Source of the DNA: a virus
Taxonomy: Duplodnaviria > Heunggongvirae > Uroviricota > Caudoviricetes
DNA length: 5,407 nucleotides
Virus record (IMG/VR): IMGVR_UViG_2703718851_000002
Span: 1 to 5,407 of that record
Strand: one strand, 5' to 3'
The number at the start of each line of letters is the position of its first letter. Position 1 is the stretch's first letter. The position numbers and the translations under genes were made by a program. Below the pieces are notes generated by a model that was not told the origin of the DNA, ran no database searches, and saw nothing but the letters and a program-made list of their open reading frames with translations. Shown here in pieces: positions 2,892-4,414 of this stretch.

Positions 2892-3473
2892 GTGCTGATT
2901 GGCTATGTAAGGGTATCAACAAATGACCAGAATACAGACCTGCAACGAAACGCTCTTGTTTGTGCAGGATGTGAACAAATATTTGAAGATAAATTAAGCG
3001 GGACAAAGACAGACCGACCGGGATTAAAACGCGCTTTAAAGCGCCTTCAAAAAGGTGACACGCTGGTTGTCTGGAAACTGGATCGCCTCGGGCGAAGCAT
3101 GAAACATCTGATTTCTCTCGTCGGGGAACTACGGGAGCGAGGGATTAATTTTCGCAGTCTGACCGACAGCATAGACACATCTTCTCCAATGGGGCGTTTT
3201 TTCTTCCACGTTATGGGTGCCCTGGCTGAAATGGAACGAGAACTAATCATCGAGCGAACGATGGCTGGACTTGCTGCCGCCAGAAATAAAGGCCGTATTG
3301 GTGGGCGACCACCTAAACTAACCAAAGCGGAATGGGAGCAGGCCGGGCGTTTATTAGCACAAGGAATCCCCCGCAAGCAGGTTGCATTGATCTACGATGT
3401 GGCCCTGTCAACTCTGTATAAAAAACACCCCGCGAAACGAGCGCATATAGAAAACGACGATCGAATCAATTAA
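2892..3473 (+). CDS. gin: Gin DNA invertase (serine recombinase, resolvase/invertase family)
   Basis: 193 aa MLIGYVRVSTNDQNTDLQRNAL..DRLGRS..; essentially the Mu Gin sequence as I recall it, with the catalytic Ser in the VRVSTNDQ motif and a C-terminal HTH. GTG start at 2892 preceded by GGAG at 2881..2884. In Mu the Fis-dependent enhancer lies inside the 5' part of gin; not mapped here. Confidence 0.95.
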   Translation: MLIGYVRVSTNDQNTDLQRNALVCAGCEQIFEDKLSGTKTDRPGLKRALKRLQKGDTLVVWKLDRLGRSMKHLISLVGELRERGINFRSLTDSIDTSSPMGRFFFHVMGALAEMERELIIERTMAGLAAARNKGRIGGRPPKLTKAEWEQAGRLLAQGIPRKQVALIYDVALSTLYKKHPAKRAHIENDDRIN

Positions 3474-3540
3474 ATCGATCGGTAATACAGATCGATTATG
3501 CCCCAATAACCACACTCAACCCATGATGTTTTTTAAGATA
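3459..3540 (+). promoter_or_regulatory. mom operon control region: three GATC (Dam) sites, C-activator dyad, T6-spacer promoter
   Basis: GATC at 3459..3462, 3477..3480 and 3490..3493; dyad TTAT-N6-ATAA at 3496..3509 (GATTATGCCCCAATAACC); T6 run 3529..3534 running into TAAGAT 3534..3539, about 30 nt before the com SD AAGGAGGTGA. This matches the published Pmom layout as recalled; exact -35/-10 assignment is inference. Confidence 0.6.
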
Positions 3541-3567
3541 GTGGCGAATTGATGCAAAGGAGGTGAG

Positions 3568-3756
3568 ATGAAATCAATTCGCTGTAAAAACTGCAACAAA
3601 CTGTTATTTAAGGCGGATTCCTTTGATCACATTGAAATCAGGTGTCCGCGTTGCAAACGTCACATCATAATGCTGAATGCCTGCGAGCATCCCACGGAGA
3701 AACATTGTGGGAAAAGAGAAAAAATCACGCATTCTGACGAAACCGTGCGTTATTGA
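3568..3756 (+). CDS. com: Com zinc-finger translational activator of mom
   Basis: 62 aa [27 protein letters not shown].. with a C-x2-C ... C-x2-C zinc-ribbon pattern; strong SD AAGGAGG upstream; 3' end overlaps the mom reading frame, as in Mu. Confidence 0.9.
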
Positions 3757-4414
3757 GTATGAAGGCCAGATTGTTGGCTATGGTTCAAAGGAGCTGCGCG
3801 TTGAAACCATATCCTGCTGGCTGGCCCGCACAATTATTCAGACAAAGCACTATTCCCGCCGTTTTGTGAATAACTCTTACCTCCACCTAGGAGTATTCAG
3901 CGGACGCGATCTGGTTGGCGTTCTCCAGTGGGGATATGCCCTTAACCCCAACTCAGGTCGTCGTGTCGTGCTTGAAACGGATAACCGGGGCTATATGGAG
4001 TTGAATCGCATGTGGCTACACGACGACATGCCCCGCAACTCTGAATCACGGGCCATCAGCTACGCGCTGAAAGTTATCAGATTACTGTATCCGTCAGTGG
4101 AGTGGGTTCAGTCCTTTGCTGACGAACGCTGCGGACGCGCAGGCGTTGTGTATCAGGCGTCGAATTTTGATTTTATTGGCAGCCATGAAAGCACGTTCTA
4201 CGAGCTGGATGGTGAGTGGTATCACGAGATAACGATGAACGCAATTAAGCGCGGTGGACAACGAGGCGTGTATTTACGGGCTAATAAAGAGCGTGCCGTG
4301 GTGCACAAATTTAATCAGTATCGCTACATCAGGTTCCTGAACAAGCGAGCAAGGAAGCGACTAAATACTAATCTATTCAGGATTCAGCCATACCCAAAAA
4401 GCAGTTCTGATTAG
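3677..4414 (+). CDS. mom: Mom DNA-modification enzyme (adenine modification giving restriction resistance)
   Basis: Long ORF overlapping the 3' end of com in another frame and following the gin-com order of Mu; the protein resembles Mu Mom as recalled. The true initiation codon is uncertain: ATG 3677 is the first ATG, but an in-frame GTG at 3707 or another internal start is possible. Confidence 0.85.

Follow-up and report, generated by a model that had tools for sequence, protein, structure and literature searches.

An intact phage Mu com-mom operon in a PhiR68_1-type deletion remnant, probably switched off for want of its activator C

Does a complete com-mom operon serve any purpose when the late activator C is missing from the element that carries it? 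The com-mom system is already known and is among the best-studied phage regulatory circuits. The question is raised by a stretch of phage DNA of 5,407 nucleotides (the window, to which positions refer unless another record is named), which holds com, mom and their promoter Pmom.

The com-mom operon and its promoter

Sequence comparison found no difference between window 3249-3882 and phage Mu, and Mu 35640-35780 matched window 3440-3580 at 100% identity. Three Dam (GATC) sites, at 3459-3462, 3477-3480 and 3490-3493, lie upstream of Pmom. They are followed by a TTAT-N6-ATAA dyad at 3496-3509, the C-binding site and the only dyad of this form in the whole window. The Dam sites and the dyad are identical to those of Mu, where OxyR occupies the unmethylated GATC region upstream of Pmom (PMC3378877). 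The Pmom core (3509-3546, + strand), also identical to Mu, comprises a poor -35-like sequence, ACCACA (3509-3514), a 19-bp spacer, the -10 sequence TAAGAT (3534-3539) and a transcription start that would lie near 3546. A T6 run (3529-3534) within the spacer overlaps TAAGAT, and the T run is of the wild type. When TAAGAT was set at -12 to -7, the dyad was centred at -43.5 and the three GATC sites at -87, -69 and -56.

By themselves, the Pmom motifs are weak evidence; when the window was shuffled 5000 times, three GATC sites equally close together arose 374 times. We took the motifs as real because they are identical to those of the studied phage Mu. The first-pass annotation had described a complete com-mom operon with its control region, and all the features it listed were found where it had placed them. 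Neither the dyad nor any GATC site was mutated relative to Mu Pmom, a check that it had proposed.

The com gene (3568-3756, + strand) encodes a zinc-ribbon activator of mom translation of 62 amino acids (Pfam Zn_ribbon_Com, PF10122). Its ribosome-binding site, AAGGAGGTGAG (3557-3567), is directly followed by the ATG at 3568. The product is identical to Mu Com, of the CCCC zinc-ribbon type, and is encoded upstream of mom. RefSeq names Com a 'DNA-binding transcriptional regulator', whereas the literature describes an RNA-binding activator of translation (PMC6483171).

The mom gene (3677-4414, + strand, with the stop codon ending at 4414) encodes the tRNA(Gly)-dependent adenine-modifying enzyme (Pfam Mom, PF25680, 253 bits). 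Its start is GTG 3707 in the curated Mu record and ATG 3677 in the RefSeq call, so that the overlap with com is 50 nt or 80 nt, respectively. Mom of the window agrees at every residue with Mom of PhiR68_1, an isolated phage, and differs from Mu Mom only in the C-terminal tail. R111 and S124, reported as essential in the Mom family, which has a GNAT fold (PMC13219725), are both present in the numbering from ATG 3677. If expressed, Mom would place glycine from Gly-tRNA(Gly) on N6 of adenine in DNA.

A translation-inhibition hairpin, CCCAC...GUGGG (3691-3711, + strand), sequesters both the GUG start of mom (3707) and its ribosome-binding site, GGAG (3696-3699). The model of occlusion of the mom start by this hairpin has been published (PMC6483171). 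The CCCAC/GUGGG stem was recovered in the predicted lowest-energy RNA fold, and its sequence is identical to that of Mu. In brief, the window has the Mom family, Com, the hairpin, the Pmom architecture and the three-GATC cluster of Mu-type com-mom sequences; the sole sequence-defined family feature it lacks is the late activator C, of the Mor family, encoded in cis.

The deletion remnant and the loss of C

The operon lies in a Mu-family element of 4,914 bp (window 84-4997) with PhiR68_1-type immunity. The element is bordered by a target-site duplication, GGGAA (79..83 and 4998..5002), the same 5 bp at both Mu ends. Its left end, attL (84..260, + strand), has the transposase-binding cores L1 (97-108), L2 (202-213) and L3 (242-253) and is 99.8% identical to PhiR68_1. 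The right end, attR (4912..4997, - strand), has three cores at 4931-4942, 4949-4960 and 4971-4982. The transposase-binding motif RAARYRCGAAAR had six matches, against 1.07 expected by chance. The element thus has the L1-L3 and R1-R3 ends and the 5-bp duplication of a Mu-family prophage; of the transposition genes, 44 codons of A are left and none of B.

The left part retains an intact immunity repressor gene c (420..935, - strand; 171 amino acids; Pfam HTH_Tnp_Mu_1) and an intact ner (1135..1353, + strand; 72 amino acids; Pfam HTH_35), whose product is identical to PhiR68_1 Ner. The region between them (939..1134) belongs to a block, window 80-1488, that is 99.8% identical to PhiR68_1 6-1414. 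By its position, as in the curated Mu record, it is the putative site of the operators, the early promoter Pe and the transposition enhancer. The next gene is a stump of transposase A (1356..1532, + strand), consisting of the first 44 codons, which match PhiR68_1 A through ...FRQIHGV, and out-of-frame sequence.

At the deletion joint (1486..1488), a 3-bp TAA microhomology, the sequence passes from A codon 44 into the interior of U, which lies in an inverted G segment; window 1486-1848 corresponds to PhiR68_1 33217-32853. The frame of the truncated tail-fibre assembly gene U (1452..1802, - strand; Pfam Caudo_TAP) crosses the joint, and RefSeq lists it as a pseudogene lacking its C-terminus. Beside it is the variable C-terminal part of the tail fibre gene S (1804..2655, - strand; Pfam Gp34_trimer), which shares 93-97% identity, in reverse orientation, with stretches of the S gene in Mu and PhiR68_1 and lacks a constant N-terminal part to which it could be joined.

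From the G-segment border onward, window 2800-4997 equals PhiR68_1 34925-37123 at 99.7%. One G-segment inverted repeat (gix site) survives, at 2800..2837. It matches both G-segment ends in Mu, D108 and PhiR68_1, and the D108 record annotates its counterpart. The serine invertase gene gin (2892..3473, + strand; 193 amino acids; Pfam Resolvase and HTH_7) is intact and its product is one residue away from Mu Gin. As only one of the two G-segment repeats is left, Gin has nothing to invert in the remnant. In N61, the Escherichia coli strain described below, a search with the whole window matched at one further place, outside com-mom and the left 1.5 kb; it may be the tail-fibre/invertase region of another prophage, on which Gin could act. 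After mom, and outside its operon, lies gp56 (4459..4905, + strand), annotated as 'D108-specific protein'. It encodes 148 amino acids with a hydrophobic, signal-like N-terminus, and its product is identical to D108 gp56, one residue away from PhiR68_1 gp56 and absent from Mu. It had no match in Pfam or PADLOC, and an Rfam scan of the window returned no family.

Since PhiR68_1 has 37,128 bp, about 32 kb were lost: most of A, B, kil, gam, mor, C, the lysis, head and tail genes, and the left G-segment repeat. A single illegitimate recombination across the TAA microhomology, from A codon 44 to the inside of U, removed all of it, including the genes for Mor, the middle activator, and C, the late one. 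Transposase-mediated intramolecular transposition was considered as the cause and rejected, because neither end is damaged and the joint, with its 3-bp microhomology, lies inside the element.

The chromosome of E. coli N61 (NZ_AP028880.1, 4064922-4070313), a bovine mastitis isolate from Japan, contains window 1-5392 at 100% identity. Among 5,426 complete E. coli genomes, N61 alone covers more than 80% of the window. The last 15 bases (5393-5407) differ, and N61 is therefore a very close proxy rather than the exact source.

The first-pass annotation had stated that C is not encoded in the element, and had asked for a search of the genome for C and Mor. Our results agree with that statement. In the window, the best tblastn match to Mu C or Mor had E = 1.7, at chance level. 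The 29-kb N61 locus gave none, while the same run recovered both genes in Mu, D108 and PhiR68_1. For the whole N61 chromosome, a composite nucleotide query was made of window 1-1500 and the mor-to-C region of PhiR68_1. At the DNA level, with N61 as proxy and top-ranked genome, it matched in one place only, the window part itself, with no mor-C. The same search showed relatives of mor-C down to 79% identity in other genomes; its reach is about 65-70% identity, and a distant Mor-family protein would be missed. Of the 48 places in the collection that hold a Mu-type C, none is on an E. coli plasmid. In a rough census, com-mom-like DNA was present in 98 genomes and Mu-type C in 41; the difference between the two counts is no measure of orphan operons because C of the com-mom class at 80-90% identity (49 records, about half of the com-mom matches) is below megablast detection. 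E. coli E24377A was considered as a second orphan com-mom and rejected, as its prophage still has tail genes.

The remnant sits in druH (yjiT/STY4851 family) of a type III Druantia, with window 1-83 and 4998-5392 as its flanks. DruH is split near residue 976 of about 1100. The adjoining helicase of 2114 amino acids is DruE (PADLOC DruE3, 2699 bits; PMC13192584). The Druantia locus (5329-12081 and 16961-19897 of L001) adjoins hsdMS and mcrBC in the immigration control region. The phage insertion has probably inactivated this host defence. The last 15 bases of the window, GTACTGACCCCAAAA, had no match at the junction in N61, in Logan contig L005 or in any complete E. coli genome. A 16-mer that includes this end starts a stretch in Shigella flexneri, beside two transposase-like ORFs. 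The stretch looks like the end of an IS3-family insertion sequence, and the ORFs may be those of IS600. In the source strain, druH probably carries a further insertion sequence.

Probable silence, recency and rival explanations

Without C, RNA polymerase is not productively recruited to Pmom, and a single T-to-G change at -14 (tin7, a promoter-up mutation) lifts the C requirement (PMC3378877, PMC4461284). As further, independent locks, Fis, and OxyR on unmethylated DNA, repress Pmom (PMC3378877, PMC4461284). Translation of mom requires Com (PMC3378877, PMC4461284), and untimely expression of Mom is toxic to the host (PMC3378877). Since the T run is wild type here and C is absent, the operon should be off. 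With a poor -35, a 19-bp spacer and the T6 run, RNA polymerase would remain unrecruited unless C were bound to the dyad at -43.5. In a cell without C, com-mom would not be transcribed and, without Com, the mom start would stay in its hairpin. Dependence of transcription on C and Dam, and of mom translation on Com, would be expected of this copy. From the literature on this exact promoter, com-mom without C is probably switched off. We therefore hold it very likely that the window contains an intact Mu com-mom operon in a recent PhiR68_1-type deletion remnant, switched off for want of C.

Why, then, is the module intact? Only two positions in 2908-4997 differ from PhiR68_1. This identity to a live phage suggests a recent deletion, and it is no evidence of selection on com-mom; the module would have been kept intact by recency and not by use. 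The distribution of the remnant is consistent with this. The 116-amino-acid ORF that spans the joint (1452-1802, - strand) was found residue for residue on 8 public contigs besides N61, including the Logan assemblies of SRR3957116, SRR3987556 and DRR499801. These contigs and N61 are the only known occurrences of the remnant. The two contigs with enough flank had the same yjiT/Druantia context. An exact search for the deletion joint found it absent from species-representative genomes and metagenome contigs. The remnant appears to mark a clonal lineage and not a single isolate, which fits a recent event inherited in one clone.

Could a helper phage switch the operon on? The c repressor of the remnant is 100% identical to that of PhiR68_1, but only 46% to that of Mu and 40% to that of D108; the corresponding Ner identities are 48% and 65%. 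Such divergence suggests that the Mu-family phages of E. coli include a third immunity type. Eight other complete genomes had this left end at 99.8-99.9% identity. Because the remnant keeps an intact c identical to that of PhiR68_1, phages of the same immunity should be repressed on entry and never make C. For activation in trans, a phage with another immunity would have to supply a Mu-type C. However, a Mu or D108 helper carries its own com-mom, and the resident copy would add only dosage. The A and B proteins of such a phage might also move the remnant, because both ends and the enhancer region are kept. Both activation and mobilisation in trans are thus predictions for helpers of another immunity.

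The first-pass annotation had called the module a latent anti-restriction function awaiting a helper. The intact operon and the loss of C stand, but 'awaiting a helper' goes beyond the evidence. An orphan com-mom retained as a useful latent function that helper phages switch on would explain the full intactness of the module and the persistence of the remnant in its lineage, with the exact fusion ORF at the same site in the 8 contigs and N61. Cross-activation is also plausible, as C differs little between Mu, D108 and PhiR68_1 (98.6-99.3% identity). With only two differences from PhiR68_1, however, there has been no time for decay and the intactness is uninformative. A single insertion site in all copies indicates clonal descent and not repeated retention. 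Helpers of the same immunity should be blocked by the resident c, and those of another immunity bring their own mom. The remnant makes no virions and so has no DNA of its own to protect, and Mom expression is reported to be toxic to the host (PMC3378877). We consider retention for such a function quite unlikely.

Expression might instead be independent of C, with read-through from Pe (were c inactivated) or from the gin promoter transcribing com and mom. Through the deletion, com-mom came to lie immediately behind gin and only about 2.5 kb beyond Pe, and the early-region terminators went with the 32 kb. Between the early promoter and com (900-3568), the scan of the + strand found no convincing terminator, only one weak candidate hairpin at 2666-2681, and no intrinsic terminator was predicted on that strand from gin to com. 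With com on the same transcript, the translational lock would open unaided. On the other hand, the intervening stretch (1533-2891) would yield about 1.36 kb of antisense tail-fibre RNA that is not translated, and RNA of this kind is well suited to Rho-dependent termination. The intact c represses Pe and the intact ner damps it, and the persistence of the lineage speaks against leaky expression of a toxic protein. The gin-com junction is the same as in wild-type Mu lysogens, where mom is off and its untimely expression toxic (PMC3378877). Read-through expression is, in our judgement, very improbable.

A distant activator of the Mor/C family, on another transposable prophage of the source genome, could also act on Pmom. 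Outside the window, C was searched for at the nucleotide level in the proxy genome N61, and divergent E. coli mor-C (about 79% identity) and com-mom sequences (the 80-90% class, 49 records) do exist. Yet the N61 chromosome had no second place in a search reaching about 65-70% identity, none of the 48 Mu-type C places was on a plasmid, and a remote family member need not recognise the Mu dyad. We regard such an activator as extremely unlikely. A related suggestion is that the orphan module is not inert: either it would be expressed by read-through, or the host would keep it as a C-sensing trap in which toxic Mom is set off by infection with a Mu-type phage of different immunity, so that the remnant, together with c, would partly offset the lost Druantia III. 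To this we give hardly any credence.

A probably silent copy and its known relatives

If the operon is silent for want of C, as we prefer to read it, the remnant is a natural C knock-out: a single chromosomal copy of wild-type Pmom-com-mom without the activator or the lysis genes. It could be used as a clean background for tests of C-dependence, of silencing by Fis and OxyR, and of Mom toxicity. The operon itself matters little. Of more general interest is the Mu-type insertion that probably inactivates a Druantia III gene in the restriction-rich immigration control region.

Compared with com-mom and Pmom of Mu (AF083977, 35640-36602), the promoter, Dam sites, C site, T6 spacer, -10, com and hairpin are the same base for base. 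Mom is identical to Mu Mom up to the last ~12 residues. Its tail is unlike that of Mu, near the D108 type, with the same ...QPYPKSSSD ending, and identical to that of PhiR68_1. The window also differs from Mu in having gp56 after mom and no C in cis.

PhiR68_1 (PV340575) was compared alongside D108 (GQ357916). PhiR68_1 has the same c, Ner and Mom proteins as the remnant, and identity to it is 99.7-99.8% over the left 1.4 kb and the right 2.2 kb. Unlike PhiR68_1 and D108, the remnant is without ~32 kb that include A, B, mor, C and the lysis, head and tail genes. The Sv-U part of its G segment is only 85-93% identical to PhiR68_1 and is closer to SfMu (95% over window 1498-4395).

The laboratory mini-Mu is an internally deleted Mu that retains both ends and is moved by a helper. 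Like it, the remnant keeps both ends, six cores, the operator/enhancer region, c and ner, and has lost A and B. Unlike it, the remnant is of natural origin, has no marker and retains gin-com-mom-gp56. It would in effect be a natural, non-autonomous mini-Mu.
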